Notes: generated from the sequence alone by a model not told the origin. 37,133 nucleotides of DNA from a virus (IMGVR_UViG_2740892210_000013); one strand, 5' to 3'; positions 1 to 37,133 are shown, counted from the stretch's first letter. Numbers and translations are program-made.

Positions 1-1008
1 CTAATCGATGGACAGTTTATGGACACTTTCAGCCAGCGGATTAAAGTTGATCGCGTCCAGTAAAAAGTCCGGCGAAAAATGAGCGTACGTCATTGTTTGC
101 TGAATCGTTGCGTGCCCCAGGATTCGTTGCAACGTAACAATATTTCCGCCATTCATCATAAAGTGTGTGGCAAATGTATGACGCATGACATGCGTAGCCT
201 GCCCCTTCGGCAAATCCGGTTTCACCTCCTGAAGAATCTCCCGGAACTTCAGATAATCAACCTGATACAATAACCCCGTTCGACGGGTTTTAATCAGAGG
301 CACGACCGAATCCGCCACAGGAACCGAACGGGATTTTCCGTTTTTGGTGTTAAAGAACGTCACCCGGTTGCCAACGATATGCTCTCCACGTAGTTCCGAT
401 GCTTCACTCCATCGGGCACCAGTAGAAAGACACAGAATGGCAACACGACGCGCATCACCCTCCAGTCGCTCAAGAAGCCGTTCAATCTCATCATCAGAAA
501 GAAAGGCCATCTCTGTGTTCTGAACTTTCAGTTTTCGTATACCGCGTACAGGGTTCGCGTTGTGAAAGACCTCAGCTTCAATCAGCACCGTGAACATGGT
601 AGACAGTACGCATAAGTCACGATTAATACTGGACGGCATTAATCCGGCCTGTAATTTCTCTGACCGATATTCAAGCATAAATTTTCGCGTCATCTGACTG
701 GCGCGAGGATCTCCCATTTCACGAACAACCTTCCCTAGCCTAACCCTGTAGCTATCCCCGTAAGCCTGATTACGCCCATCAAGCATCCACCACGCATCAA
801 GCAGCTCTGATAATCGCCGCTGATCAGCTGGCTTAGCCTGCCATGGCTTGTCATGAAAGTTCTGTAACACATACTTCTCAAACTCCTGAGCCTTTGATTT
901 CAGGGCAAAGATTTTTCGAATCCGCTTTCCTTCCGCCCCCTGCGGTCTGACATCGACCTGATAACGTCCGTCTTTGAGTTGCTTAATCGACATGATTAGC
1001 CCCTCCAA
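1..1008 (-). CDS. int: P2-type tyrosine integrase (site-specific recombinase)
   Basis: 335-aa ORF; C-terminal catalytic region HVMRHTFATHF (H-x-x-R) and TMTYAHF (catalytic Tyr); sits next to the C repressor as in P2-like phages. Confidence 0.9.
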   Translation of the reverse strand: MEGLIMSIKQLKDGRYQVDVRPQGAEGKRIRKIFALKSKAQEFEKYVLQNFHDKPWQAKPADQRRLSELLDAWWMLDGRNQAYGDSYRVRLGKVVREMGDPRASQMTRKFMLEYRSEKLQAGLMPSSINRDLCVLSTMFTVLIEAEVFHNANPVRGIRKLKVQNTEMAFLSDDEIERLLERLEGDARRVAILCLSTGARWSEASELRGEHIVGNRVTFFNTKNGKSRSVPVADSVVPLIKTRRTGLLYQVDYLKFREILQEVKPDLPKGQATHVMRHTFATHFMMNGGNIVTLQRILGHATIQQTMTYAHFSPDFLLDAINFNPLAESVHKLSID

Positions 1009-1062: not shown

Positions 1063-1404
1063 TCAGCCAACATTGCGGCCTGATCGGGGTGATTTTTGGG
1101 TAATACCGATTGAAACCTGATCGCCCTCCGACTGAATAGATCCATCAAGAGAGAGAGCCGGAGCAATCTGCCCGGCGACAGGTAGCGTCTTATCTTTTAT
1201 TAGCCACAGCATGTATTTTTCAAAGCGATCGACTTGCAGAACCGCCTCAACGATTTTTGCTCTAGCGTTCTTTTGCCCCGATTCGTAATTCCTTATGGTT
1301 GCCAAAGACAACCCAGTAATATCCGCAAACTGCTTTTGTGTTAACCCTTCCGCCTTACGTATCTGACGTAACTTTTTTGCGTAGTCTATTGACAAGATAA
1401 CCAT
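1063..1404 (-). CDS. C: P2 C-type immunity repressor (HTH); ORF extends to 1458 but start at 1404 (MVILSIDY...) has a GAGAGG RBS
   Basis: HTH region LTQKQFADITGLSLATIRNYESG and the GQIAPAL motif that I recall from P2 C; divergent from the early operon. Confidence 0.7.
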   Translation of the reverse strand: MVILSIDYAKKLRQIRKAEGLTQKQFADITGLSLATIRNYESGQKNARAKIVEAVLQVDRFEKYMLWLIKDKTLPVAGQIAPALSLDGSIQSEGDQVSIGITQKSPRSGRNVG

Positions 1405-1449
1405 TTGAGTATTAACCTCTCGCACAAAGATAACCTTTTGGTTATCTTT
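1389..1449 (+). promoter_or_regulatory. Early promoter/operator region: TTGACA (1389-1394), 15-bp spacer, TATTAA (1410-1415); perfect palindrome AAAGATAACC-TTTT-GGTTATCTTT (1426-1449) plus extra half-site AAGATAACC (1394-1402)
   Basis: Read directly in the sequence between C and the first rightward ORF; the repeated half-site suggests a repressor operator. Confidence 0.45.
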
Positions 1450-1508
1450 ACAAGCCAAAACAAACCATCACAAGGCGCGACAAGCGCACCAACGCAAGAG
1501 GATAACAA

Positions 1509-2030
1509 ATGCGGGACTTCATTGCCGATAAAGAGTTATCTGACCACCAACCACTTCAGGAAAGTGACGCACTCAGCGGATCCATTGATGCCGCCAACGA
1601 CGACGAGCACGAAGAAAACAAGAAAAAGCGTTCCTACAAAAAAGGAGCGACTTTGCGGCTGGATGGTCCGATCGCCGGGCTTTGCTCTCTGGAAAAAGGC
1701 GCGGCATATATTGGGCTAACAAAATCTGCACTGCGCGTAGCCATTCATCGCGGTCAAATGCCGGGACACAAGACGCGCACAAACCCGGAAGATGAAAACT
1801 CAGACGGAGTATGGTGGTTTAACGCCAAAGAGTGGGACAAGTTGGCTGATGAGCTACCAGAGCACGAGCCCCCAGAATGGCACAACTGGAAAAGTTACTG
1901 GACGTATGACCGCCAGAAAAGGAAGTTCTCTCCAGCTAATAAAGAAGACTGCCAGACCATTAACGGTAAGCGAGTTTATACAGGCAGAAGCTCAAAACTG
2001 GACCAACTCAGAAACAACAGAGGCAACTAA
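1509..2030 (+). CDS. First early-operon protein with HTH (Cox/Apl position); 173 aa, longer than P2 Cox, true start uncertain
   Basis: AAGAGG RBS 8 nt upstream of the ATG; HTH-like segment AAYIGLTKSALRVAIHRGQMP; occupies the cox slot after C. Confidence 0.5.
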   Translation: MRDFIADKELSDHQPLQESDALSGSIDAANDDEHEENKKKRSYKKGATLRLDGPIAGLCSLEKGAAYIGLTKSALRVAIHRGQMPGHKTRTNPEDENSDGVWWFNAKEWDKLADELPEHEPPEWHNWKSYWTYDRQKRKFSPANKEDCQTINGKRVYTGRSSKLDQLRNNRGN

Positions 2031-2034
2031 TCGT

Positions 2035-2457
2035 ATGAAAACAAACACGTCAGATTTCACAATAACTATTTCAAAAAATGACCAAGCATTAATTGATAAC
2101 CTGAAATACCTTGCGGAAAAACATAATAACGGACGAATTGCAATTAATTTACGACACATCACAGGAGTAACAATTGTAACCAGTTACTGGCATCTATATC
2201 TAATCGCTAAATCAGTACTTGAAAACAAAGATTCTGTTGTCAATGGAAGAGATATAGATACTCTTCCTGCACAAATCAAACCGATAGCCTATCAATTGCG
2301 TAATCGTTTTAAAAATGAAGGTGGGATTATATTTGACTTTCCCGCAGCTGTAGCCGTGAGCTTCTCTCGGGAGGATATACTTCACTCATTTCGTTTTGCT
2401 CTATCAGGTGACGAGACATTATGGCAGCTAGAAGATGCCGGGAGCAGCCCGGCATAA
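2035..2457 (+). CDS. Hypothetical protein (140 aa) in AT-rich segment
   Basis: Internal ATG of ORF 1792..2457 immediately after the stop of the preceding gene; local AT-richness; no recognisable motif. Confidence 0.4.
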   Translation: MKTNTSDFTITISKNDQALIDNLKYLAEKHNNGRIAINLRHITGVTIVTSYWHLYLIAKSVLENKDSVVNGRDIDTLPAQIKPIAYQLRNRFKNEGGIIFDFPAAVAVSFSREDILHSFRFALSGDETLWQLEDAGSSPA

Positions 2458-2463
2458 ATCAAA

Positions 2464-2655
2464 TTAAAAATCAACCAGTTGTGTGACAGGTGGGTATTTA
2501 CGCTGAATTTTGTCAGTTACTAACGCCAGTAATATATGAATCTCTGCGTTTAATGCGTCTTTATCACCCGTCGTTTTTACCCTGGGAGGGTTAATGTTAT
2601 CCAGAGCAGCACTAAGTTCACTCAACAAATTAACAACTTTTTTATCTTCTGACAT
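2464..2655 (-). CDS. Hypothetical small protein (63 aa), convergent with the 2035..2457 gene
   Basis: ORF with AAGAGG RBS on the minus strand upstream of the ATG at 2655; AT-rich. Confidence 0.4.
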   Translation of the reverse strand: MSEDKKVVNLLSELSAALDNINPPRVKTTGDKDALNAEIHILLALVTDKIQRKYPPVTQLVDF

Positions 2656-2792
2656 GAAAACCTCTTAACAATTTAATTAAACATAAGCCAGGACCTGAAC
2701 CGGCCAGTCCAAGTCCTAGACACACAAAAAAAATACCACAAATCAATACAAGGTGACACGAGTACACCTTACCGAAGGTACAGAGTTTTAAT

Positions 2793-3143
2793 ATGAAACT
2801 ACAGCGCAATTCTTCACAGCAGCGCTTCCGCAACGGTGCGGAACGCCATGCTAACCGTTTCGCTACCAGTGCATCACGTAGCAACTCTCGCTACAGCCTG
2901 AGCGAAACACACGCAACGCCGGATGGCTACCCAGTAAAACAAATTGGTGAACACACTTGGCTGATTGAAAAAGCAGGAATCGTGGTTCACAGATGCCAGC
3001 GCAACCCATTTACCGGAAACCGCATTTTTGCACTGAGCAACGGCGACAATCAGTTCGGGCAGGATTTCACATTGTACGAAGCACTTCGCACAGTTGATCG
3101 TCTGCTTCGCGGACAAAGTTTTATTAAACAGGCTGATTTATAA
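2793..3143 (+). CDS. Hypothetical early protein (116 aa)
   Basis: ORF in the early operon orientation; no recognisable motif. Confidence 0.45.
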   Translation: MKLQRNSSQQRFRNGAERHANRFATSASRSNSRYSLSETHATPDGYPVKQIGEHTWLIEKAGIVVHRCQRNPFTGNRIFALSNGDNQFGQDFTLYEALRTVDRLLRGQSFIKQADL

Positions 3144-3153
3144 CAGGTGCTTT

Positions 3154-3432
3154 ATGACCAAAGAGCATGCACAAGGTGTATTTATTCGTTTTATTGATTT
3201 TCGCGGTGAACTGTTATTACGCGCATCAGCTATTGATGGAGTCGTTCCATCCGAAAAAAATGCAGCTACTTACGTTTATCTGAACGGCACGCGCCTGACC
3301 GTAGAACTTCCGTACCAGACTGTACACGAAATCATTAGCGAAGCGGAAAAAGCACGTAAGACTAATGGCGATGAACCCTATATCGAAATTATTTGTATGG
3401 ATTCAGAAGCAGAAATTCAGAAAGCAGATTAA
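3154..3432 (+). CDS. Hypothetical early protein (92 aa)
   Basis: Internal ATG (MTKEH...) of ORF 3094..3432, tightly packed with neighbours. Confidence 0.4.
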   Translation: MTKEHAQGVFIRFIDFRGELLLRASAIDGVVPSEKNAATYVYLNGTRLTVELPYQTVHEIISEAEKARKTNGDEPYIEIICMDSEAEIQKAD

Positions 3433-3443
3433 AGGGCGTTGCG

Positions 3444-3686
3444 ATGGGCAAAGAATATAAAACTCTCATTAATAAAGCACTTGAGCGTTTTTATTTTCGC
3501 TTAAGTGCATCAGGCGCTCATGCTGAACGTGCAGCCCGTGACTCATTGACCAGGGCAATCCGGAGTCTGTATGACGTGGCTTTTTACGCTGATGATCTGG
3601 ATGCACTTAACGAACTTTCCGAGCTGATCTGTGCCGCAGAATGCGGGGAACATATTGAACCGTATAAGCTGGGGAATATTGCATGA
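3444..3686 (+). CDS. Hypothetical early protein (80 aa)
   Basis: Internal ATG (MGKEYK...) of ORF 3393..3686; start chosen to avoid overlap with the upstream gene. Confidence 0.4.
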   Translation: MGKEYKTLINKALERFYFRLSASGAHAERAARDSLTRAIRSLYDVAFYADDLDALNELSELICAAECGEHIEPYKLGNIA

Positions 3687-3796
3687 GTATATTTATCTCA
3701 TGGCTTGTTCTGATTATTTCGGTGGTCTGCGCCATTGGGATTATGCGAATTATTAATTCAGTGAAAAAGATCGAGCGTTTTTTCTCTGATGAATAA
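3683..3796 (+). CDS. Possible small hydrophobic membrane peptide (37 aa, MSIFISWLVLIISVVCAIGIMRIINSVKKIERFFSDE)
   Basis: ATG overlaps the upstream stop (ATGA); single predicted transmembrane helix; below the ORF-track length cutoff. Confidence 0.3.
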   Translation: MSIFISWLVLIISVVCAIGIMRIINSVKKIERFFSDE

Positions 3797-3888
3797 CGAT
3801 ACAAATAAAACATCAAATTAAATAAGAAAACGTGAAAACCATCCGTATTAACGGAGGTATTCGCACACGTAAATAATGGAGATATAAA

Positions 3889-4305
3889 ATGAACGCAAAA
3901 GAAGAAGGCATTATCAACACATTAAAAAAAATATCAGAAGCGGAAGATGAAATGGCTAAAGATGCCGTGAAGCGTAGCCAACATATGGCAGCACTTCACG
4001 CACTGACCATCGCAAAAATCACCGCTGACGCAGCCAAAATTATTGAGGAACAGGGCAAAGAAATCGACACTCTTAAAACACAGTCAACAGTTGCAGCCAT
4101 GAATCCGTCCAGCATTGGACGCCGCATTTACATTCTTGGTTCGGCAATAATGACGCAATACACCATTATTGCCGAACTGCACGGCAAATACCTGATAACG
4201 CCTTACCACACAAAGGAGTCAGAGCTTCTGACAAATCTCCGCCTGATAGAACGCTCTCAAGCTGTATTCATTGATGACGCGCAACGTGCCGTATTTAACG
4301 CATAG
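3889..4305 (+). CDS. Hypothetical early protein (138 aa)
   Basis: ORF preceded by a GGAG-type RBS (taaataatGGAGatataaaATG). Confidence 0.5.
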   Translation: MNAKEEGIINTLKKISEAEDEMAKDAVKRSQHMAALHALTIAKITADAAKIIEEQGKEIDTLKTQSTVAAMNPSSIGRRIYILGSAIMTQYTIIAELHGKYLITPYHTKESELLTNLRLIERSQAVFIDDAQRAVFNA

Positions 4306-4328
4306 GGTTACTGGACAAAGGGGGCGCA

Positions 4329-4532
4329 ATGGCAATTAAGCATTTTCCCGTCGTTCGCTTTACCTCCAGAGGGCGCGAATACGAGGTCGACGAACGCCTG
4401 ATTACCACTATCGACAAACATCGTTCGGAAAAGGATGCACACCACATCTACCTCACTGACGGCACTTACTTCTGCGCCACCAACGTGGCGCGGGTGAATC
4501 TTATCCGACAGGTACAGGAGCCACGCAGATGA
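4329..4532 (+). CDS. Hypothetical early protein (67 aa)
   Basis: ORF whose stop overlaps the next gene's start. Confidence 0.45.
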   Translation: MAIKHFPVVRFTSRGREYEVDERLITTIDKHRSEKDAHHIYLTDGTYFCATNVARVNLIRQVQEPRR

Positions 4533-4795
4533 CCATTCTGGACTACATCGCTACTCATCCGGGGTGTAGCGGCGGAGAGATCGCCGCAGCACTGAATACT
4601 CCAACCACAGCCATTAATGCTGAGTTACGCCAACTTTGGCGCGGCGGCTTAGTCATCAGAACAAACCGCAGCACAGGTGGTCGCGCTCGCAAAACTGGAG
4701 GCCAGGCTTCTTACCACGTAAACCCGATGCCGTTCGGGTGTAGCAATCCACTTACTCACATGTTTAACCAGCTACTGAAGGAAGCCAGAGCATGA
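4529..4795 (+). CDS. Hypothetical early protein (88 aa)
   Basis: ORF translationally coupled to both neighbours; no recognisable motif. Confidence 0.45.
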   Translation: MTILDYIATHPGCSGGEIAAALNTPTTAINAELRQLWRGGLVIRTNRSTGGRARKTGGQASYHVNPMPFGCSNPLTHMFNQLLKEARA

Positions 4796-5091
4796 GCACC
4801 ATCAACCACCAGAAGCTACGCGAACTGGCATTTGCCCTGCAACGAATGGCAACGCCTCAAAAATTACTGGCATTTCGCGCAATGCTCTCGCCGTCTGCTG
4901 TGCTGGCATTGCTGGATGAGCTGGAGCACGCCAGAACCACGGCTCCTGCCATTCGCCTGACGCTCCATCATGAAATCGCTGATTTCTGCGCGACATTGGA
5001 GGCGCCAGGCGAACCGGAAACGCCGGAAGCAATACAGCAAGAGCTGCTGCAACGCATTGACAAGGTTTTTGATTTTTTTCTGAACCAGTAA
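4792..5091 (+). CDS. Hypothetical early protein (99 aa)
   Basis: ORF overlapping the upstream stop codon. Confidence 0.45.
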   Translation: MSTINHQKLRELAFALQRMATPQKLLAFRAMLSPSAVLALLDELEHARTTAPAIRLTLHHEIADFCATLEAPGEPETPEAIQQELLQRIDKVFDFFLNQ

Positions 5092-5413
5092 GAAACCAGA
5101 GCATGCACACACAAAAAAACCGCTTGCCATGCCGCAATCGGTCAGGTTACATTTCCGCTGCACCTCATAAAACGGGTGCCGGGATTCTCAACCCGATACA
5201 GAGCAAAGCGCATAACCGCGCCAGCGGTTTTTTTGTGCGTACTGTATTGCCACGTCTTTTTCGCGTCAGAATTATGGCGGGGCGTACGGGGCCGACTTCG
5301 GTCGGGCCGGATTCTTTGCTCTCCGGTGTTGAGAACCCTGTACGTCTCGCCACCCCGAGATTCTCAACTCTGGATGGTGAGTTATTTCTATCACCGAGCA
5401 AAGAGGCCACACC

Positions 5414-5644
5414 ATGGCAAACCGCAAACAGCACCGCGCTATCGCGGAGCGTCGTCACATCCAGACTGAAATCAACCGCAGACTTTCCCGCGCATTCCGC
5501 GTCGCTAAAATCATGCACATCAATATGCTGCATGAGCGTAGCTGCGAACTTTCAAACCTCTACTCATCCGCTGTTTTCAGCTATCTGGCGGATGATCTGC
5601 GCGAGCTTCAACAGCTCATCCAGCAGCAAAACAAACTCCATTAA
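5414..5644 (+). CDS. Hypothetical early protein (76 aa)
   Basis: AAGAGG RBS 7 nt upstream of the ATG. Confidence 0.45.
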   Translation: MANRKQHRAIAERRHIQTEINRRLSRAFRVAKIMHINMLHERSCELSNLYSSAVFSYLADDLRELQQLIQQQNKLH

Positions 5645-5716
5645 TTCCTGTTCCGGGCCTTTCCTGCACCTTGCGGCGGGAGGCCTTCGCACATCTGTAA
5701 CAAGAGGATTGCCGCA

Positions 5717-6082
5717 ATGATTCTCGCCAACGACTTTCTTGAATACCTGCTCAACACAGAGCGTGATCTTGCCGCTCGCGTACGTGATCGTTATGACATG
5801 TATCTGAAATCCCTGCCTGTGCCGCAGCTCGCTGACGGAAAGATTGTTATTGATGGTCGCTACATGATTGACAGCCACGAGGGAAATTACAGGCTTTACC
5901 GCATTGAAGGTGGCACCCCGTCCGTTATTGGCATTTACCAGCGCCCATCCTCTGCAATCGTCGATGTGATTGCCGACAGCATCCGCATCACACATCGCCA
6001 TGCCGACACAGAAGACACCGTGCTGGAAATTCAGCGGCTGGCTGCCGTCTGCCGCGACACCCTGAATGGCATGACGAAGTAA
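5717..6082 (+). CDS. Hypothetical early protein (121 aa) immediately upstream of A
   Basis: ORF ending 6 nt before the A start codon. Confidence 0.45.
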   Translation: MILANDFLEYLLNTERDLAARVRDRYDMYLKSLPVPQLADGKIVIDGRYMIDSHEGNYRLYRIEGGTPSVIGIYQRPSSAIVDVIADSIRITHRHADTEDTVLEIQRLAAVCRDTLNGMTK

Positions 6083-6088
6083 ATCACT

Positions 6089-8911
6089 ATGACGGCAGAG
6101 TACATCAGGGACTGGCAACAACCGCGCCACGCAGTGGGACGTGAAGGAACGGGGATCCCCGTTCCTGAATCCGCGCTTTCCTCCTGGCTGGATGCCTACC
6201 GGGCAGAGAACGAGCGCCGCCAGGAAATGGCTGATGCGGCGTTCTCCGCCACGCCGCTGGGCAACCTGATTAATAAAAGCCTGGATGCACAGGAAAAACA
6301 GGACAAAACCATCACACTGGCAGGAGACGCCAGAAAACAGGTACGCGGTGCGGTGGATGAAGCCATGGCCTCGCTGCGCCTGCTGCCGTCCTATCTGCGC
6401 GATCCGCTTATTCGCCACCTCTCCTTCCTGCGCAAAAAACAGGAAGCCGATCGCCGGAAAGGCAAAAAGAGCTGGCAGGCTGAACGCTACGCGCGCGGAA
6501 CCCTGCGCAAAATATTCGAACGTCTGGACCGCACCGACCACCGCTGGCTGACACCGGGTTATCGCTCCCTTGCCGGACGCGAACGCCTGGATGATTTGCT
6601 TTACCTGCCGCAGCTCAACAAGCACCAGATACAGACGCTGGCCACCATGACGGCGGCGATGTTCAGCAGCACCTTCGAAAAACTCTGCGATGGCTTTGGC
6701 GCGACTGATGGCGAGCTGACCATGGATGTAACGCTGAAGGCGTATCAGATGCTGGCCCGCATGGCGTTACACCTGCACGCCATGCCTCCGCATTATGACG
6801 CACTGACAACAGACAAAGACCGGAGGAACGAACCGGACACGGAGCTGCTGCCGGGCGCAATCCTTCGCCTGACCTGTGCGGAATGGTGGAAACGCAAACT
6901 GTGGCTGTTACGTTGCGAGTGGCGGGAAGAACAACTCCGCGCCGCCTGTCTGGTTTCCAGAAAAACATCGCCCTATCTGAGCCAGGACGCGTTAAGCGAG
7001 TTTCGCGCACAGCGCGAGAAAACACGCGATTTCCTGAAAAGTTTCATGCTGGAAAACGAAGACGGGTTCACGATTGATCTCGAGACGGTGTATTACGCGG
7101 GAGTAAGTAACCCGGTTCACCGTAAGGCAGAAATGATGGCCACCATGAAGGGGCTGGAACTTCTGGCCGAAGCCCGTGGCGACAAAGCGGTGTTTCTGAC
7201 TGTCACCTGCCCGTCAAAATACCACGCCACAACAGAGAACGGTCATCCGAATCCCAAATGGAACGGGGCCACCATGCGCGACTCCAGCGATTACCTGGTT
7301 AACACGTTTTTTGCGGCGGTCCGCAAGAAACTGAACCGCGACGGCCTGCGCTGGTATGGCATCCGCACGGTGGAGCCTCACCATGACGGCACCGTGCACT
7401 GGCATATGATGGTCTTTGCTCATCCGGAAGAAATCGACACCATTGTGTCCCACACCCGCGATATTGCCATTCAGGAAGATCGTCACGAGCTGGGTGATGA
7501 TATTACCCCACGCTTTAAGGCGGAGTACGTCGACGGCTCAAAAGGCACACCGACCAGCTACATCGCCACCTACATCGGGAAAAACCTGGACAGCCGTGCC
7601 GTGGATGGCATCGACCCGAAAACGGGCAAGCCACGCGTTGACCACGAAACCGGAAAATCAATGGCCGAGAGCGTGGAACGCGCCATCGGCTGGGCGCGCC
7701 TTCACCGGGTCCGCCAGTTCCAGTTCTTTGGTATCCCCTCCCGTCAGGTGTGGCGTGAACTGCGCCGCCTTGCCAGCCAGATGGCTCGCAACCCGGAAGG
7801 ACCGCAACGGCTGAAGGATGACGCAATGGACGCGGTTCTTGCTGCCGCTGATGCCGGATGTTTTGCCACCTACATAGAGAAACAGGGCGGCGTACTTGTT
7901 CCACGCAAGGACTACCTGATTCGCACCGCCTACGACCTCGCCGATGAGCTGAACGATTACGGTGAACAGAGCGTACAGATTTACGGGATCTGGTCACCGC
8001 TCATCGGGGAGTCTTCCCGCGTATGCACGCATCCGGACAACTGGAAGCTGGTAAGACGCAAACCGGAAGCGGAAGACAGCGCCCGCGAAAATGGTTTTGA
8101 CCTTCAGGGCGGCCCTGCCGCACCTTGGACTCGTGGCAATAACTGTCCCCGTGTACAGGAAACGGACAACAACGGGACAGAACAGCCGGAAGAACGGCCA
8201 GCACCGTGGCCGCAGCTTCCTGACGGCGTTGACGTGAACGAATGGATGCGCTCACTGAAACGGCACGAACGCCGGGCGCTGATGCGTTCGCTGCGTGACA
8301 AACAGGCAAAAAACAGCAGTGATGAAATGCAGAGCTGGACACAGAGCCGCAAACAGCAGCGGCCTTTGCCTGATAACCACGAATTACTCGCTAAAGAATG
8401 GCGGGAATCTGCCGAATCTCTCGGCCTGCATATCGGTGAACAGCAGATGCAGCACCTGTTACGGGGCGGCAGCCTGTACGTTGACGGCAGCATCATTGCA
8501 CCGCAGGGATTTGAAATTGTACGCAAACCGGATACCCGCCCGGACAGCCGAATCACGCAGCTCTGGCAGCGCCTGAGCCGTAATCACGGCGTAAGCAGCA
8601 CGGAGATCCGCCATAACCCGGTCGCCAGCTATCTGGAACAGCTGGGGGCATCAGACCCCGAAGCCGCCGCACGTCTGGCATCCACACTTCAGCAGGACCA
8701 GAACACCATGAACCCCCCCGTTACCGTGCTTTCTGACATGCTGCGCGCCATCCGCGACGCAGAGCACGCACAGAGAATCAGTGAAACCACTGAACGTGCC
8801 CGCCGCAAAGCAGACCTGCTGCGGGGTGGCCTGACCAGTGGAAACAAAAAACAGACAGAAACGGGATTCACAAATCCCGTAAATGAGCAAAAAACGCGCC
8901 GCGATATATGA
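6089..8911 (+). CDS. A: P2 gpA-family replication initiation endonuclease (rolling-circle), 940 aa with a long C-terminal extension
   Basis: HWHMMVF (H-u-H-type) motif; large size and position after the early operon as in P2; longer than the P2 A size I recall. Confidence 0.8.
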   Translation: MTAEYIRDWQQPRHAVGREGTGIPVPESALSSWLDAYRAENERRQEMADAAFSATPLGNLINKSLDAQEKQDKTITLAGDARKQVRGAVDEAMASLRLLPSYLRDPLIRHLSFLRKKQEADRRKGKKSWQAERYARGTLRKIFERLDRTDHRWLTPGYRSLAGRERLDDLLYLPQLNKHQIQTLATMTAAMFSSTFEKLCDGFGATDGELTMDVTLKAYQMLARMALHLHAMPPHYDALTTDKDRRNEPDTELLPGAILRLTCAEWWKRKLWLLRCEWREEQLRAACLVSRKTSPYLSQDALSEFRAQREKTRDFLKSFMLENEDGFTIDLETVYYAGVSNPVHRKAEMMATMKGLELLAEARGDKAVFLTVTCPSKYHATTENGHPNPKWNGATMRDSSDYLVNTFFAAVRKKLNRDGLRWYGIRTVEPHHDGTVHWHMMVFAHPEEIDTIVSHTRDIAIQEDRHELGDDITPRFKAEYVDGSKGTPTSYIATYIGKNLDSRAVDGIDPKTGKPRVDHETGKSMAESVERAIGWARLHRVRQFQFFGIPSRQVWRELRRLASQMARNPEGPQRLKDDAMDAVLAAADAGCFATYIEKQGGVLVPRKDYLIRTAYDLADELNDYGEQSVQIYGIWSPLIGESSRVCTHPDNWKLVRRKPEAEDSARENGFDLQGGPAAPWTRGNNCPRVQETDNNGTEQPEERPAPWPQLPDGVDVNEWMRSLKRHERRALMRSLRDKQAKNSSDEMQSWTQSRKQQRPLPDNHELLAKEWRESAESLGLHIGEQQMQHLLRGGSLYVDGSIIAPQGFEIVRKPDTRPDSRITQLWQRLSRNHGVSSTEIRHNPVASYLEQLGASDPEAAARLASTLQQDQNTMNPPVTVLSDMLRAIRDAEHAQRISETTERARRKADLLRGGLTSGNKKQTETGFTNPVNEQKTRRDI

Positions 8912-8953
8912 AGCGCACACAAAACAGGCAAAAACGGGATTTCAGAATCCCGT
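8861..8953. repeat. Two 20-bp palindromes ACGGGATT-N4-AATCCCGT (8861-8880 and 8934-8953) within a ~35-bp direct repeat, spanning the A 3' end and the parM upstream region
   Basis: Read directly; candidate operator/centromere (parC-like) for the downstream parMR pair. Confidence 0.5.
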
Positions 8954-8987
8954 AAACGATTAATTAATCAACATAAGGAAAAGCGAC

Positions 8988-9947
8988 ATGAAAATTTGTA
9001 TCGACGACGGCTCCACCAACATCAAGCTGGCATGGACTGAGAATGGCGAACGCCGCAACGCCATCAGCCCGAACAGCTTCAAGTCGGAATGGTCTGCGCC
9101 GTTCGGTGGCATGCAGCCCGCGAACTACATGCTTGATGGCGTGCGCTATGGTTTTGATCCGGTCAGCGATCGCTTTGTCCAGACGACCGACACGCAATAC
9201 CAGTACAGCGATGTGAATGTAATCGCCATTCATCACGCGCTGGTCAAATCAGGCATCACGCCACAGGAGGTGGATGTGGTTGTCACCCTGCCACTGAGCG
9301 AGTATTTCGACACAAACGCACAGCCGGACATGGCCAACATCAACCGCAAAAAAGCGAACGTTATGCGCCCGGTGGAGTACCAGAACGGCGAAGCATTCAC
9401 TATCCGTAACGTGCGGGTTATGCCTGAATCCATTCCGGCTGGCTTTAAAGCACTGGCTGACATGAGTCCGTTTGAATCCCTGCTGATTGTGGATTTAGGC
9501 GGAACCACGCTGGATGTGGCAAAGGTTCAGGGGCAACTGGCAGGTATCAGCCAGGTGTTTTGCGATCCACACGTAGGCGTCTCCCTGATGGCCGGTGCCG
9601 TGCTGTCGGTGATGGCCGCTAACGGTATGCGTACCAGTCACCACATCGCCAATACCATTATCGAACATCGCCATGATGAAGCCTGGTTGCGCCAACACAT
9701 CCACAATGACGCGCATTACGCCAGCCTGATGGCGGTTATTCGTGAAAAGGAAGAAACACTGAAACAACGCGTGATCCGCGCGCTGGCGGGTTTTTCGGGT
9801 TACGGGCGGGTGATGGTTGTCGGTGGCGGGGCGGAGATTGTGGCACCCGCTATCCGCGAAGCCTGCGGAGTTAATGCGACTTTCATCGCGGACGGGGTGC
9901 CACAGTTTGCTCTGGTTAATGGGCTGTACGCAATGGACAAGGAGTAA
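8988..9947 (+). CDS. parM: ParM/StbA-like actin-type segregation ATPase
   Basis: N-terminus MKICIDDGSTNIKLAW, ISPNSFK and QYSDVNVIAIHHALVKSG closely match what I recall of plasmid R1 ParM; 319 aa. Confidence 0.8.
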   Translation: MKICIDDGSTNIKLAWTENGERRNAISPNSFKSEWSAPFGGMQPANYMLDGVRYGFDPVSDRFVQTTDTQYQYSDVNVIAIHHALVKSGITPQEVDVVVTLPLSEYFDTNAQPDMANINRKKANVMRPVEYQNGEAFTIRNVRVMPESIPAGFKALADMSPFESLLIVDLGGTTLDVAKVQGQLAGISQVFCDPHVGVSLMAGAVLSVMAANGMRTSHHIANTIIEHRHDEAWLRQHIHNDAHYASLMAVIREKEETLKQRVIRALAGFSGYGRVMVVGGGAEIVAPAIREACGVNATFIADGVPQFALVNGLYAMDKE

Positions 9948-9951
9948 ACCA

Positions 9952-10266
9952 ATGACGACACCAACCAGACGGATAAGTTTCTATCTGAAGCCAGTCGCCG
10001 TCAATAGTGAACGGGAGGCGTGTAATTACCTCGACAGCCTGCCAGCCTCTGAACGCAGCCGCGCGCAACGCGCGGCCTTTCTGGCCGGGCTGGCACTCAT
10101 AAAACGCGATCCTGCATTTGCCTATTGGTTGGCCGAATGGCCGGAAGAAGGAGCTGCGCCAGCCAAGAATAATATTCAGAGTAAATATGCCAGCACACCT
10201 GCCACCGGAAGCAATCACAGCACTAGCGAGATAAGAAAGAACATTCAGTCATTTTTCCCAGAGTGA
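9952..10266 (+). CDS. parR: ParR/StbB-like centromere-binding adaptor
   Basis: Internal ATG of ORF 9817..10266, 4 nt after the parM stop; RRISFYLKP... and DSLPASERSRAQRAAFLAGLALIKRDP resemble R1 ParR as I recall it. Confidence 0.6.
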   Translation: MTTPTRRISFYLKPVAVNSEREACNYLDSLPASERSRAQRAAFLAGLALIKRDPAFAYWLAEWPEEGAAPAKNNIQSKYASTPATGSNHSTSEIRKNIQSFFPE

Positions 10267-10285
10267 AAACAGGAGAGGAGCATCT

Positions 10286-10747
10286 ATGGCAACTATCCCC
10301 AAAAAATGGTTACAACGCAAAATTGCAGACCTTGAATCGTGTCGTGAAGACATCCCGTTTGGCCTTGATGAAAACGATCACAATATGTTAATCGCACTGA
10401 AAATCGCACTCACATCGCTGGAAGCAGAGGCAGTTATGTTCTGTATATCAGGACAAAATGTAGATTCAGAAGAACATGTATCAACCAGCAAAGCGGTTGT
10501 TGATGCCTGGGTTGAAGAATGGAATCAGGTTGACGGAAGTCCTGGCGAACCACTGTACAAAACTATGCCACTCTACTATCACGCTGCCTTGCCAGCGCCG
10601 GTAGTGCCGGAAGAAGCAACTCCGGAAAACGTAGAAATGCTCTCTGGCTATGTTTCCACATACAAATTAACCGATAGCGAGCGCGATATTGCTGCCGAAA
10701 TATGGAACGCCTGCCGCGCCGCTATGCTTCATGGGAAAGGAGAGTGA
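10286..10747 (+). CDS. Hypothetical, strongly acidic protein (153 aa)
   Basis: ORF with GGAG RBS; high Asp/Glu content; same operon as parMR. Confidence 0.5.
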   Translation: MATIPKKWLQRKIADLESCREDIPFGLDENDHNMLIALKIALTSLEAEAVMFCISGQNVDSEEHVSTSKAVVDAWVEEWNQVDGSPGEPLYKTMPLYYHAALPAPVVPEEATPENVEMLSGYVSTYKLTDSERDIAAEIWNACRAAMLHGKGE

Positions 10748-10748
10748 T

Positions 10749-11012
10749 ATGGCAACTTTAACAAAAAAAGAACGGGCATGGTTGAACGAATTACAGGACG
10801 TTCTTGATCGCTGCCCATCACCGAAAAAAATTGGTTTTTACACCATTGGCGATAAAAGCATTTACCTGTATGACCTGCGCCGCATGGATGAAATCATGGA
10901 GGCTCTTGATAATCGTTCGTCAATGGATTGGTGTGTTGCTGTCCATGATATGAATGCAGGGTTTGATGAAAAGATTTTGTTCCCCTCATCAGTTGAAAGC
11001 ACAGCAGGATAA
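10749..11012 (+). CDS. Hypothetical protein (87 aa)
   Basis: Internal ATG (MATLTKKERAW...) 1 nt after the upstream stop; followed by a terminator. Confidence 0.5.
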   Translation: MATLTKKERAWLNELQDVLDRCPSPKKIGFYTIGDKSIYLYDLRRMDEIMEALDNRSSMDWCVAVHDMNAGFDEKILFPSSVESTAG

Positions 11013-11046
11013 GGACCCAGCCAATATACACAACCTATAAAACACT

Positions 11047-11073
11047 AAAGCGCCTCAGGGGCGCTTTTTGTTT
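11047..11073 (+). terminator. Intrinsic terminator (AAAGCGCC-TCAGG-GGCGC + T-run) ending the parMR operon
   Basis: GC stem-loop followed by TTTTTGTTT, read directly. Confidence 0.6.
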
Positions 11074-11523
11074 GCACAAAAGTGCACAAATTTGCACAAT
11101 TTTTTTGAACGACTTTTTACCCTTCCGGCCCGCATGGCGGCTGGATCCGTCAAGGATCCGTGCGTGCACAAAAAAACGCGCTTTTTCTACGCGCAGGTGA
11201 CGGGGGAACAGCCCGCGTTTCAGGGGGTAAATAGCATTCCCTGAACGATGTCGCAGAGATACAACAGAATGGCTGTATTTCTCACGCTGAGCGTGAAAAA
11301 GACGTGAGGGCTTTTGATTTGATGGGGTGAAAGGTAAGGCCGTCAAAATCGCACTGAGACGGCGAGAACATGCAGTCAACGCGGTGGGATTGCGTAAGAG
11401 TCTGGCTGTCGATGATGGCAATAAGCAGGAAAGCGTCGTGAAATTATCTGATTGATACAGGAGCTGGAGAGTCGGGGCATAAATTTTTTATGCCCCGGCG
11501 AAGCAGCAGACAAGCGAAGCGCG

Positions 11524-12570
11524 TCAGGATGTGGGCTGGGTGTCCAGCAGTGCATAAGGGTTAAAGCGGATCACCTCTTCGCCAAGCCAGTCATTGATGT
11601 GCTTCATGGCCTCCATGACGGGCATCAGCTCGTTAATTGCGTAAACCCGCGCGGCCTTCTCCACATCACCAAACGCACTTTTTTCGCCCGGCATCGCCCC
11701 CATCAGTTGCGGCGGAACGCGGTGCGCAGCCAGCACATCATCACGGGATGCCGCCTTAACATTCATGAACTCATCCTTTGCGGTGATCTGCTGGAACGGC
11801 AAAATTTGCACCCCCTCTTTGCCCCCGTTGGGCGCATGGATGAGCACGTTTTTAAACGCACCACCACCACGCGCACCCTGTAGCGTTTCTTTCAGGGAGT
11901 CCATGCTTTCGCGGTTTACCTGCGCTGCACCGATGTAGATGATGCACCCGGCGTGGGATCCATTGTCGTAATACAGTTTTCTGAACATGTCCGCCGAATG
12001 AGACAGGCTGGCCGAGAGTAATGCGCCAAGATATTCCGGCATGCCGTAAATTTCCTGGTTAATGTCAGGATTCATCAGGTGGCACACTTTGCCAGGGCGA
12101 AACTGAAACGCGTCCTTGCCATCCTGCACATACCACCATGATTCAAGATCGCTTCCGCGTCGCATGTATTTCGCCAGGGCGTGCCGTAATTTAAGCGGTT
12201 CGCCGAGCATATTGCTTCGAAGCTCAAGGAATGCGTTACCGAACACAAACCAGTCCAGCGCCAGCGCCGAGAAATCCTGCCGGGAAAGCAGCGGGTGCGG
12301 AATATAGCAGCCGAGCAATACATTGCGCTTAAAGTAAAGCGCAGACTGATGCCAGGACGTTTGCCGGGCAGCTCTTGCCAGACCGTACCAGTCCACCGGG
12401 GTTTCGTACCACCGCCCGTTATCAGCACAGTACATATTGTCCAGCAGGTCATGCCCGGTCAGGCGATAAGGACCATCAAATGTGAATGCACTGAGCGATG
12501 ATTCTTTCCTGAGCGCATCAGCGAGATCAATGCGTGAACTCATGCGCACTTTTTTATTTTTTCTGCTCAT
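11524..12570 (-). CDS. Q: Portal (capsid) protein gpQ
   Basis: 348 aa, close to P2 Q size; located downstream of the large terminase on the same strand, overlapping its stop by 1 nt. Confidence 0.85.
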   Translation of the reverse strand: MSRKNKKVRMSSRIDLADALRKESSLSAFTFDGPYRLTGHDLLDNMYCADNGRWYETPVDWYGLARAARQTSWHQSALYFKRNVLLGCYIPHPLLSRQDFSALALDWFVFGNAFLELRSNMLGEPLKLRHALAKYMRRGSDLESWWYVQDGKDAFQFRPGKVCHLMNPDINQEIYGMPEYLGALLSASLSHSADMFRKLYYDNGSHAGCIIYIGAAQVNRESMDSLKETLQGARGGGAFKNVLIHAPNGGKEGVQILPFQQITAKDEFMNVKAASRDDVLAAHRVPPQLMGAMPGEKSAFGDVEKAARVYAINELMPVMEAMKHINDWLGEEVIRFNPYALLDTQPTS

Positions 12571-26710: not shown

Positions 26711-27288
26711 TGGCATTCAGAATGAGTGAACAATCACGGACCATAAAAATTTATAATCTACTGACCGGAACCAATGAGTTTATTGGTGAAGGTGATGCAT
26801 ACATTCCACCTCATACAGGTCTGCCAGCAAACAGTACCGATATTGCCCCGCCAGATATTCCGGCTGGCTTCGTGGCCGTTTTCAACAGTGATGAGGCATC
26901 GTGGCATCTCGTTGAAGACCATCGGGGTAAAACGGTTTATGACGTGGCATCAGGGGACTCGTTATTTATTTCTGAACTCGGTCCATTACCGGAAAATGTT
27001 ACCTGGTTGTCGCCGTATGGAGAGTATCAGAAGTGGAACGGCACATCCTGGGGGAAAGATGCAGAAGCAGAAAAACTGTTTCGGATAAGGGAGGCGGAAG
27101 AAACAAAAAACAGCCTGATGCAGGTAGCCAGTGAGCATATTGCACCACTTCAGGATGCTATAGATTTAGATATTGCGACGGAGGAAGAGACATCGTTACT
27201 GGCTGCATGGAAGACATATCGAGTATTGTTGCATCGTGTTGATACAACAGTAGCAGCAGATATTGAGTGGCCAGTCGCCCCACAATAA
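26710..27288 (+). CDS. G: Tail fiber assembly chaperone gpG (Tfa)
   Basis: 192 aa directly after H with overlapping stop/start; Tfa-like size and position. Confidence 0.8.
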
Positions 27289-27297
27289 AAAGAAAAA

Positions 27298-27321
27298 GCC
27301 ATCGATAGAAATATCGATGGC
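27298..27321. terminator. Bidirectional stem-loop (GCCATCGATA-GAAA-TATCGATGGC) between G and the convergent acetyltransferase gene
   Basis: Perfect 10-bp inverted repeat followed by TTTATG; preceded by an A-run on the other strand. Confidence 0.55.
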
Positions 27322-27331
27322 TTTATGTACT

Positions 27332-27937
27332 CTATTTATACAATACAGCACCGCTCTTTTTAGTTATATATGTGCAGTTCGATGGTATATCTTTATTTAT
27401 AAAAGACATTGCACCTATTTTTACATTATCCCCAATTTTACGGGATAATCCAATGATGCAACAATTAGCTCCGATATCAACGTTGCTACCAATTTTTACT
27501 CTTGAACCAGGTATGTCACCATCTATCTGTCCAATGGTCGTATTCTGTCGTAACACCAGATTTTCACCAGCATCAACAGCAAAATGAACAACAATTCCAG
27601 CATGATGGGGAATTGTTAACCCTTTTCCAATATTTGCGCCCAATCCAATTTCGCAACCAAATTTGTTAATTATTTTACTGTTTAACTTCTTGGCTGCTTT
27701 CTTATGTAATTTATTACCATTAATATACATTTCGTTAGCCAACCGCCACCAGAAAAGGAAATTCCTGTTACGCTGCTTTTTCTCTCTTAAAAGCCTCCAG
27801 ATATCCATACGTTTCCGCCGAATTACTTCATGTTTCCAGAAGTTTTTTAAATTAGTAGAGTTCCCAAATAAAACAAAGTGAATTGCCATTAGGTAAGACA
27901 GCACGATAATCTCCTTAATTATTATTTCAGACCACAC
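27332..27937 (-). CDS. Hexapeptide-repeat (left-handed beta-helix) O-acetyltransferase, CysE/WcaB/NeuO-like; AT-rich cargo gene
   Basis: 201 aa; hexapeptide-like repeats GLGANIGKGLTIPHHAGIVV...IGSNVDIGANCCIIG...IGDNVKIGAMSFI; much lower GC than flanking phage genes. Confidence 0.7.
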   Translation of the reverse strand: MWSEIIIKEIIVLSYLMAIHFVLFGNSTNLKNFWKHEVIRRKRMDIWRLLREKKQRNRNFLFWWRLANEMYINGNKLHKKAAKKLNSKIINKFGCEIGLGANIGKGLTIPHHAGIVVHFAVDAGENLVLRQNTTIGQIDGDIPGSRVKIGSNVDIGANCCIIGLSRKIGDNVKIGAMSFINKDIPSNCTYITKKSGAVLYK

Positions 27938-27955
27938 ATGTTATAAGGTTAAGAG

Positions 27956-27984
27956 ATTATAAAATCCTGTTGTTTATTATTCAA
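27956..27984 (-). promoter_or_regulatory. Sigma70-like promoter for the acetyltransferase gene (TTGAAT, 17-bp spacer, TATAAT on the minus strand)
   Basis: Read directly; the -10 hexamer lies ~20 nt upstream of the ATG. Confidence 0.45.
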
Positions 27985-28060
27985 AAACAATTTTCTGAGA
28001 AGGACATACAACAGCAAGTCGCCAGTCACCTTCATCAGGAAATTGGCGACATACGTTAAA

Positions 28061-33633: not shown

Positions 33634-33790
33634 AGCTTCAGCCCCTTGTATCCGTTAAATGATTCGGCAACAATCATCACCCACCACGCGCGTAATCTCA
33701 CCCCTGCGCCGTTCTCCCGCCACGGCGACAACAAAAAGCAGTAACCCCCTCCGCACGCACATGCGACCATGCCGCACAGGGAGGGAGCAG

Positions 33791-35840: not shown

Positions 35841-37133
<1,293 letters not shown>

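Follow-up and report, generated by a model that had tools for sequence, protein, structure and literature searches.

Why would a phage that integrates into its host chromosome carry a plasmid-type partition system? The question is raised by a viral sequence of 37,133 nt (IMGVR_UViG_2740892210_000013), the whole of which is referred to here as the window. By gene content it is a P2-type integrated prophage, and the window spans int to the host serS gene. In the region in question (8912-11073), ORF calling identified four closely packed genes on the + strand (8988-11012), with replication gene A on one side and a strong terminator on the other. A preliminary description had proposed a four-gene operon between A and Q that ends in such a terminator, and the coordinates, the gaps and a 9-pair stem followed by a T-run all agree with this layout. 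The genes and the terminator are as follows:

1-1008, − strand: integrase (prophage context)
1063-1458, − strand: C-like HTH repressor (prophage context)
1509-2030: cox (prophage context)
6089-8911, + strand: gpA, rolling-circle replication endonuclease (PF05840, 2.1e-131; context, with parMR next)
8988-9947, + strand: parM, actin-like partition ATPase of 319 aa, N-terminal start MKICIDDGSTNIKLAW (PF06406, PF21523, 1mwk)
9952-10266, + strand: parR, predicted ribbon-helix-helix-type centromere-binding adaptor, 104 aa from the ATG, includes DSLPASERSRAQRAAFLAGLALIKRDP (PF10784)
10286-10747, + strand: orf153, mosaic Ead/Ea22/DUF551-associated small protein of 153 aa, variable cargo (phrog_5117, 660 and 60; shared modules)
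10749-11012, + strand: orf87, conserved stand-alone protein of 87 aa from an orphan mobile-element family, variable cargo (phrog_1714)
11047-11067, either strand: bidirectional intrinsic terminator at the operon end, a 9-pair stem (5 G-C) then a T-run, which scores on the − strand too
11524-12570, − strand: portal (prophage context)
33659-34900: gpD (prophage context)
35841-37133, − strand: host serS (prophage boundary)

The gpA stop codon is separated from parM by 76 nt, parM from parR by 4 nt, parR from orf153 by 19 nt and orf153 from orf87 by 1 nt; these gaps therefore indicate a one-operon layout of parM, parR, orf153 and orf87. A signal scan predicted no + strand terminator or promoter from gpA to the final terminator, and from this absence of predicted signals we infer that parMR and the cargo genes would be expressed with the early operon. 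An Rfam scan of 8600-11600 returned no match.

The first two products had been described as close homologues of R1 ParM and ParR. Homology is confirmed by HMM and structure searches, in which both proteins were matched: ParM to StbA_N (PF06406, 2.7e-82), the ParM C-terminal domain (PF21523, 1.6e-67) and the R1 ParM structure 1mwk (E 8e-93, residues 2-316), and ParR to Plasmid_stab_B (PF10784, 8.7e-25) and, weakly, to the pB171 ParR structure 2jd3 (E 0.004). "Close", however, overstates a relationship of ~50% identity (~40-52% to the listed plasmid ParMs, with the closest plasmid ParM at ~52%). The DDGSTN, DLGGTTLD and GGGAE nucleotide-binding motifs of ParM align with those of R1 ParM, and at the sequence level the ParR C-terminus has an RxNIxxFFPE motif in common with the ParRs of IncI/K plasmids. 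In R1 ParR, the C-terminal tail is the part that binds ParM. With an actin-fold ParM that has both subdomains and the motifs, and a small ParR encoded directly downstream, the pair are, as judged from sequence, genuine type II (actin-type, R1-like) partition proteins. Purifying selection on parM is strong: the gene is intact in 87/87 copies, which represent 70 alleles, and the median dN/dS is 0.05. ParR occurs as 44 alleles that form two helix-region groups; across related loci, its N-terminus (MTTPTRRISFYLKP) is nearly invariant and its linker is variable.

Plasmid parMRC loci (stbAB; R1, IncI/IncL/IncF) share with the phage locus the parM-parR order, the 4-nt gap between the two genes, the ParM fold family with its nucleotide-binding motifs, a Plasmid_stab_B ParR with the RxNIxxFFPE tail, and repeats directly upstream of parM. 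The phage ParM nevertheless falls into a separate, phage-specific clade, and ParR is 104 aa long compared with ~140 aa in plasmids. The space upstream of parM is the 76-nt gap to gpA rather than 340-410 nt, and the putative centromere is a pair of 20-bp palindromes rather than a parC of approximately ten direct iterons. Unlike plasmid parMRC, the module is found in an integrated prophage, straight behind a rolling-circle initiator. Among plasmid records, none has a ParM between 60% and 95% identity, which, together with the ~52% identity of the closest plasmid protein, argues against recent pickup from a plasmid.

The presence of a partition system in such a phage had been considered unexpected, and R1-type ParM is indeed rare: among 50,697 phage records it occurs only in 14 that are P88-like and in two of the phage-plasmid D6. 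Within the P88-like phages (Xuanwuvirus, Peduoviridae) the picture is uniform. parMR directly follows gpA in all those examined, including P88, PhiR44_2 and 569R5, and it also follows gpA in a phage-sized circular record and in 80 analysed IMG/VR loci. P88, P884B11, 520873, 503458, phiSM and PhiR44_2 have the same module at 94-98% DNA identity (ParM is 97.5-99% identical in most of the listed phages and 95% in 503458), at the same place after gpA and with the same upstream repeats; it is the parR allele and the cargo that differ. An IMG/VR scan for more distant phage parMR recovered only 98-99% identical ParM, and a scan of species-representative genomes recovered three parMR loci, from E. albertii, Salmonella and a 'Vagococcus' contig, the last of which is probably contamination. 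parMR DNA is found in 1303 of 5426 complete E. coli genomes, in up to 3 copies in some, and the carriers include O157:H7, O104:H4 and ETEC strains. RefSeq annotates the genes as ParM or partitioning protein. parMR is a fixed, routine and already annotated core part of the P88-like (Xuanwuvirus) lineage, and the earlier suggestion of an undescribed system has to be dropped. The idea of combined episomal and integrative states was also already in print: Pfeifer et al. (2021, PMC7969092) remarked that P88 has partition genes yet integrates, suggested both states, and scored P88 as having 'plasmid-like replication genes'. We found no functional study of P88/Xuanwuvirus ParM in the literature.

So, what does ParMR do in these phages? 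We think it rather probable that parMR is a type II segregation module that moves the phage's own extrachromosomal circles, with orf153 and orf87 as separate cargo. ParR dimers would bind palindromes 5' of parM, the ParR-DNA complexes would cap ParM-ATP filaments, and the filaments would push phage circles apart. The module would act during an extrachromosomal phase: in a newly infected cell until the phage integrates, or during the rolling-circle replication that follows derepression and excision. The outcome would be that phage copies reach both daughter cells, or that they are spread for replication and packaging. orf153 and orf87 would apparently be co-transcribed with the early operon.

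The proposed role is in keeping with results for two systems of integrated elements, SrpMRC (ICE R391) and AlpAC (prophage CGP3). SrpMRC of the SXT/R391 ICEs is a ParMRC-like locus that was shown to lower element loss (PMC4489591). Its host element, like the prophage with gpA, is an integrating one, and the excised circle is replicated by a rolling-circle relaxase-type enzyme. In contrast to the prophage, that element is conjugative, SrpM is distant from R1 ParM, and function has been demonstrated for SrpMRC, whereas that of ParMR is predicted from its sequence. In AlpAC/alpS of the Corynebacterium glutamicum prophage CGP3, an actin-like ATPase is co-transcribed with a DNA-binding adaptor that binds 5' of its own operon, and the system is induced early and is required for efficient replication of circular phage DNA (PMC4446434). 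Likened by gene roles, both CGP3 and the present locus are integrated prophages with an actin-like ATPase and an adaptor; AlpAC differs in its actinobacterial host and in that the adaptor gene comes first. As in these two systems, the window has an actin-like ATPase gene and an adaptor gene in an operon layout beside a replication gene.

Might the circles instead be heritable plasmids? Plasmid-like maintenance, raised in the preliminary description, was a reasonable idea, and in its strong form ParMRC would enable P88-like phages to forgo integration and be inherited over many generations as low-copy plasmid prophages. The suggestion that Pfeifer et al. (PMC7969092) made for P88 speaks for it. 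Apart from the P88-like phages, only D6 in the collection has an R1-type ParM, and D6 is a plasmid prophage. Six PLSDB records have a ParM that is at least 95% identical; one of them is circular, 34,461 bp long, and contains an entire P88-like genome (int, C, cox, gpA, parMR and the structural genes). The other five, however, are replicons of 228 kb to 1.4 Mb and not phage-sized. A near-identical phage, the best match to the circular record in the E. coli collection, is integrated in the chromosome of a sister isolate, and the lone circular record may stem from a phage copy that had excised, was replicating and was assembled on its own. gpA is the sole replication initiator found in the part of the window's ORFs that was scanned, a rolling-circle one encoded in the early operon with cox, and no theta-type plasmid replicon was seen among these ORFs. 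An autonomous plasmid state of the kind that defines the phage-plasmids (P1, N15, SSU5 and D6) is not what we observe: the window runs from int to serS, complete E. coli genomes contain 1443 parMR copies with 1441 of them on the chromosome, and there is a single phage-sized circular record. As a stable prophage, the phage is integrated and not a plasmid, and we regard long-term plasmid persistence as quite improbable.

Another reading is that ParMR is repurposed, for exclusion of or incompatibility with plasmids or P88-like phages, or for defence, with the two small genes as partners. parMR does border the A-Q hotspot of P2, where other P2-like phages carry defence-like cargo (an AAA ATPase and an S8 peptidase in phiT5282H, for example), and the allelic diversification of ParR into two groups and the multiple parMR copies of some genomes also speak for this reading. 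Yet no motif of a polymerising ATPase is missing from ParM, whose gene is strongly constrained by purifying selection, ParR retains its putative ParM-binding tail, and parMR is invariant, unlike true hotspot cargo. None of the four proteins matches a PADLOC model at E values up to 1. The four genes had been taken for one system, but parMR is fixed and the downstream genes vary among related prophages; since the partners change from phage to phage, they are not obligate parts of one system with parMR. We consider repurposing very unlikely, and continue with segregation of phage circles as the preferred reading.

Segregation would require a site to which ParR binds. Type II centromere/operators normally lie directly upstream of parM, and repeat and inverted-repeat searches found two direct repeats there, as well as a shorter array beyond the terminator:

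8844-8886, no strand: direct repeat 1, 43 nt, in the last gpA codons; candidate ParR-binding (parC-like) site
8917-8959, no strand: direct repeat 2, 81% identical to repeat 1; candidate ParR operator/centromere
11073-11099, no strand: three TGCACAA copies in a 10-bp register, at the right edge of the variable slot, in the Q-side backbone (context)

Repeat 1 holds a perfect 8-4-8 palindrome, ACGGGATTcacaAATCCCGT (8861-8880), and repeat 2 holds the palindrome ACGGGATTtcagAATCCCGT (8934-8953), 35 nt 5' of the parM ATG. The two palindromes are 73 bp apart, and the whole repeat pair spans 116 bp (8844-8959). A weak promoter-like TTCAGA-16-ATTAAT, seen by eye, overlaps repeat 2, where the scan gave no + strand promoter. 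A canonical multi-iteron array is not seen upstream of parM; the plasmid homologues have upstream regions of 340-410 nt with several repeats, some of them ~10 nt apart.

The two palindromes are a probable candidate centromere. They are directly upstream of parM, the usual place for a type II centromere/operator, and the pattern has two copies only (8861 and 8934) in 37 kb, compared with 0.08 expected by chance. Their spacing of 73 bp, ~7 helical turns, would put both sites on the same face of the DNA. The 148-nt stretch upstream of parM is confined to the 14 parM-bearing phage records, and repeat 2 is found upstream of parM in related loci, with minor variants. In one mosaic locus (L047), homology to the window restarts at 8847, the left edge of repeat 1; therefore, the repeat travels with parMR. 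All of this has to be set against another explanation, which we take seriously without thinking it probable: that the palindrome pair is a by-product of a duplicated gene A 3' end, or the site of another protein, and that the true ParR site is elsewhere or lost. The in-frame translation of repeat 2, KQAKTGFQNPVND, resembles the gpA tail encoded by repeat 1, KQTETGFTNPVNE, so the pair could have arisen by such a duplication. There are just two sites where plasmid parC has many iterons, the per-column profile shows the palindromes to be no more conserved than their flanks, and, among related loci, changes in the palindrome arms are uncompensated and do not co-vary with ParR alleles. The conservation profile and covariation are uninformative, however, because the entire region is >94% conserved. 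In favour of the centromere reading, the palindromes stay constant and the ParR N-terminal segment is itself nearly invariant.

The TGCACAA array was considered as a downstream centromere and rejected, which removes the nearby alternative for a ParR site. It belongs to the conserved Q-side backbone, and Enterobacter phage phiT5282H has it too, although that phage lacks parMR. The array is probably cos-related and is outside the par module; homology of L047 to the window restarts at 11073, and a comparison with the P2 cos sequence gave no match in the window. Phage 500465-2 was tried as a phage that would have the cos-side element without parMR and proved uninformative, as its record is a truncated prophage extraction with host genes.

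The contents of the operon downstream of parR are of a different kind. This stretch is hypervariable, with 35 architectures and 49 protein families in 57 loci. DNA homology of the window to other P88-like phages ends within parR, at 10004-10148, and at least 80% of the cargo DNA is held by only 21 of the 5426 E. coli genomes. The preliminary description had asked whether the cassette recurs at this position in other prophages: parMR does so in all the P88-like phages examined, but the pairing of orf153 and orf87 occurs once in the 57 compared loci, in the window itself, and PhiR44_2 has orf87 beside different neighbours. The A-Q hotspot is where P2 carries tin and old. orf153 and orf87 lie in the same slot, which is located between A and cos/Q and is filled differently in closely related prophages; they are the current occupants of a parR-to-cos/Q slot equivalent to the P2 tin/old hotspot. 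They are unrelated, swappable cargo and not a functional unit with parMR. Neither resembles Tin, Old or any PADLOC model, and, in contrast to prophage-expressed exclusion genes, neither gene is predicted to have its own promoter.

Both proteins had been said to match nothing recognised, but PHROG families are matched by each, phrog_5117, 660 and 60 by orf153 and phrog_1714 by orf87; phrog_5117, 660 and 1714 have no assigned function. The middle and C-terminal modules of orf153 are 78-98% identical to proteins that carry PF13935 or PF04448, and its module junctions (LEAEAV, PAPVVPE and ACRAAML) are conserved. Lambdoid Ead/Ea22-like and DUF551 proteins share modules with it, and by this pattern orf153 is clearly recognisable as a module-shuffled Ead/Ea22/DUF551-type mosaic. 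Its description as strongly acidic holds as to acidic and not as to strongly, as a pI of 4.56 and a net charge of -14 over 153 aa are moderate. The related proposal of a DNA-mimic anti-restriction factor, of the kind of Ocr and ArdA, is unsupported: orf153 has no match in Pfam, NCBIfam or PADLOC, its make-up is mosaic, and instead of a confident, elongated, highly acidic fold, its AF2 model (pLDDT 62.5, pTM 0.33) is helical with disordered stretches and too poor for structure search. orf87, in comparison, has a compact fold that is predicted confidently and no solved relative. Its family is widespread and orphan; the rare longer members contain no fused domains in a Pfam scan, and a literature search with its accession found nothing.

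orf87 also occurs outside P2-like phages. In lambdoid phages, where it lies between the replication genes and Q, it again follows orf153, of which the C-terminal two-thirds are present. In IncI2 plasmids, which have two copies of orf87, it also follows this part of orf153, in a + strand block that extends from mobC/relaxase to near hicAB and that we infer to be on the leading-region side. These contexts suggest that orf153 and/or orf87 could be anti-defence or host-takeover factors that are made early on cell entry, rather than prophage defence proteins or DNA mimics. Placement within the early operon with no predicted promoter of their own would suit such a role, as would the acidity of both proteins and, possibly, the compact predicted fold of orf87. 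The argument is one of context, however, and the leading-region placement that it uses is our reading of an unannotated block. In the libraries searched, no known family of defence or anti-defence proteins resembles either of them, the orf153 model does not permit mimicry to be judged, and genes of this kind in the nin/ea region of phages are often dispensable. We offer this as a tentative suggestion that is, on balance, unlikely.

Could there be more to these loci? Conceivably, P88-like phages are facultative phage-plasmids, with a heritable extrachromosomal phase, an actin-like spindle and a compact two-palindrome centromere, or they depend on a cytoskeleton in lysogenisation or lytic replication; separately, orf87 might be a new early-entry factor, for anti-defence or host takeover, that P2-like and lambdoid phages have in common with IncI2 plasmids. 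These possibilities are worth stating, but we hold them to be doubtful. The finding is not a new discovery, as annotations for the genes exist, a published paper has commented on the oddity, and SrpMRC and AlpAC are working precedents. orf153 and orf87 are common orphan cargo, and orf87 would be a reasonable choice for functional screening, with nothing that singles it out. Regardless, approximately a quarter of complete E. coli genomes carry a prophage-borne ParMR under strong purifying selection, and its presence in an integrating phage is relevant to the way in which temperate phages and ICEs link plasmid and integrated lifestyles.

The window is an integrated P2-family prophage, and its features are laid out as follows.

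Features of the window (coordinates, strand where assigned, feature)
1-1008, minus strand, integrase
1063-1458, minus strand, C-like HTH repressor
1509-2030, cox
6089-8911, gpA, rolling-circle initiator
8844-8886, direct repeat 1 (43 nt), directly upstream of parM
8917-8959, direct repeat 2 (43 nt), directly upstream of parM
8988-9947, plus strand, parM
9952-10266, plus strand, parR
10286-10747, plus strand, orf153 (153-aa protein)
10749-11012, plus strand, orf87 (87-aa protein)
11047-11067, strong bidirectional terminator
11073, 11083 and 11093 (span 11073-11099), three TGCACAA copies in exact 10-bp register
11524-12570, minus strand, portal Q
33659-34900, gpD
35841-37133, minus strand, serS, a host gene

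In one related phage record, the same phage family is inserted beside dmsABC. The coordinates, lengths and quoted peptides in the preliminary description of parM, parR, orf153 and orf87 are all correct. These genes are preceded by gaps of 76, 4, 19 and 1 nt, respectively, and they appear to form the end of the early replication operon because a signal scan found no plus-strand terminator or promoter-like site between gpA and the terminator at 11047-11067. Two patches of low GC content, compared to ~0.55 for the backbone, are likely additional accessory cargo. One (2000-4000, GC 0.38-0.44) lies between cox and gpA, where small early genes are located, and the other (27000-28000, GC 0.35-0.41) contains a minus-strand ORF (27332-27937) near the tail-fibre genes.

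The proposed ParM/ParR homology is genuine. Both Pfam ParM domains are recognised in ParM (2.7e-82 and 1.6e-67), which aligns end to end with R1 ParM structures (E 8e-93) and retains the phosphate-binding and adenosine motifs; ParR matches Plasmid_stab_B (8.7e-25). The match to pB171 ParR is weak. Alignment with ParRs of IncI/K plasmids reveals a common N-terminal segment and C-terminal RxNIxxFFPE tail, but the window protein is ~35 residues shorter mid-protein. All 87 parM copies are intact (70 alleles) with a median dN/dS of 0.05, so the gene is retained for a function. ParR has 44 protein alleles in 84 loci, with two helix-region groups and a hypervariable linker, whereas ParM is 98-99% identical throughout the loci in which ParR varies. 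In several public sources, the identical ParR protein goes under the name ‘peptide transporter’, and in P88 records ParM or ParR is labelled ‘recombinase’; these names are propagated misannotations.

The parMR DNA is 94-98% identical to that of Escherichia phage P88, Xuanwuvirus P884B11, 520873, 503458, Citrobacter phiSM, PhiR44_2 and others. It comes after gpA in the phage records examined, most of which label it ParM or partition protein. The module is carried by 1303 of the 5426 complete E. coli genomes, some of which have two or three copies; 1441 of the 1443 copies are chromosomal, and they are annotated by RefSeq. Among 50,697 phage records, R1-type ParM is confined to 14 P88-like (Xuanwuvirus) records and to two of D6, a plasmid prophage. 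Given that the closest plasmid ParM is only ~52% identical, with no plasmid ParM at 60-95% identity to that of the window, sequence divergence identifies P88-like ParM as an old phage-specific clade rather than a recent capture. A ParM 97% identical to that of E. coli prophages also occurs on a 226-kb contig filed under the Gram-positive genus Vagococcus (NZ_JBQPOM010000071.1, ‘Vagococcus sp.’), most likely through assembly contamination or mislabelling.

Beyond parMR, the locus is variable. Homology breakpoints between phages fall in the interior of parR; DNA homology of the window to other P88-like phages stops at 10004-10148 and, in the related locus L047, restarts at 11073. Across 57 loci, this stretch shows 35 gene arrangements, built from 49 families; among these loci, only the window combines orf153 and orf87. 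In E. coli, at least 80% of the cargo DNA is present in just 21 of 5426 genomes. The exact ParR, orf153 and orf87 proteins each occur on hundreds to more than 1000 public contigs. Judged from these comparisons, the four genes do not form one system, and the slot after the fixed parMR corresponds to the P2 tin/old hotspot. The homology and the oddity noted in the preliminary description are real, but its proposed undescribed four-gene system is a lineage trait that was already annotated, with ordinary variable cargo behind it. In the P2-like Enterobacter phage phiT5282H, the A-to-cos slot (1165-4448 of the compared record) encodes an AAA-family ATPase and an S8 peptidase, which look like a two-gene defence-type cargo.

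The suggestion that orf153 is a DNA mimic finds no support. The protein has no Pfam, NCBIfam or PADLOC match, only matches to PHROGs of unknown function, its acidity is moderate (pI 4.56, net charge -14), and its AF2 model is poor (pLDDT 62.5). It is a patchwork with conserved junction motifs at the joins, and proteins with Ead/Ea22 or DUF551 domains share its middle and C-terminal modules at high identity. The orf87 protein (phrog_1714) belongs to a stand-alone family well conserved across Enterobacterales, with a confidently predicted alpha/beta fold (pLDDT 90.8). Its gene has two other settings, in which it usually follows the C-terminal part of an orf153-like gene: in a lambdoid phage it lies between the replication genes and Q, and in IncI2 plasmids it occurs as two copies between mobC/traL and hicAB. 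As all three settings are plausibly expressed soon after DNA entry, an anti-defence or takeover factor is a fair guess, though only a guess. In the IncI2 plasmid p75-02_2, the traL-to-hicAB interval (4083-6152 of the compared record) carries a tandemly duplicated two-gene unit of an orf87 homologue (WP_000224227.1) and a 171-aa hypothetical protein.

The variable cargo stops exactly at the first TGCACAA copy. A fourth copy lies at 11165, and the array is followed by T7 and GCGCAGGTGACGGGGGAACAGCCC (window 11073-11230). We excluded the triplet as a second centromere candidate, since it starts the conserved Q-side backbone and is also kept in phiT5282H, which has other cargo and lacks parMR. The element probably belongs to the cos/terminase recognition region, and it may be a recombination boundary in cargo exchange.

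Each 43-nt repeat upstream of parM contains a perfect 8-4-8 palindrome, ACGGGATTnnnnAATCCCGT, at a spacing of 73 bp; the motif is absent elsewhere in the window (0.08 expected by chance). The surrounding 148-nt stretch occurs only in parM-bearing phage records. The gpA C-terminal region is mosaic, with window 8326-8846 replaced in L047 (3082-3859) by an unrelated ~780-nt segment, and homology restarts at the left edge of repeat 1 (8847). The L047 gpA frame runs into repeat 1 and ends in the same tail, ...KTGFTNPVNEQKTR.DI. One frame of repeat 2 would encode KQAKTGFQNPVND and then a stop, close to the gpA tail from repeat 1, so the two repeats may stem from duplication of the gene A 3' end. The palindromes are constant, and the ParR N-terminus barely varies among the 44 alleles; the palindromes show neither conservation above their flanks nor covariation with ParR alleles, and the candidate site is much more compact than the parC regions of plasmids. 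We give the palindrome pair a roughly even chance of being parC.

Most likely, ParMR separates phage circles while the genome is extrachromosomal, either post-infection before integration or after derepression, in gpA-driven rolling-circle replication. ParR would bind the upstream palindromes and ParM filaments would push the bound circles apart. Demonstrated precedents fit this mechanism: in ICE R391, SrpMRC stabilises the excised circle, which is replicated by a relaxase (PMC4489591), and efficient phage-circle replication of the integrated prophage CGP3 needs AlpAC (PMC4446434). P88-like phages are unlikely to live as stable plasmids as a rule, because essentially all parMR copies are chromosomal, but one whole P88-like genome is on record as a 34.4-kb circle. 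This ‘plasmid’ from an E. coli cat isolate (NZ_CP148288.1; 34,461 bp) encodes int, C, cox, gpA, parMR, structural genes, hok and a Com/methyltransferase pair, and may represent either a true episome or an excised copy. P88 was previously noted to integrate yet carry partition genes, and episomal and integrative states were proposed (Pfeifer et al. 2021, PMC7969092); we found no functional study of P88-type ParMR in the literature. The functional question on ParMR is real and easily tested and, being already flagged in the literature, is of modest interest.
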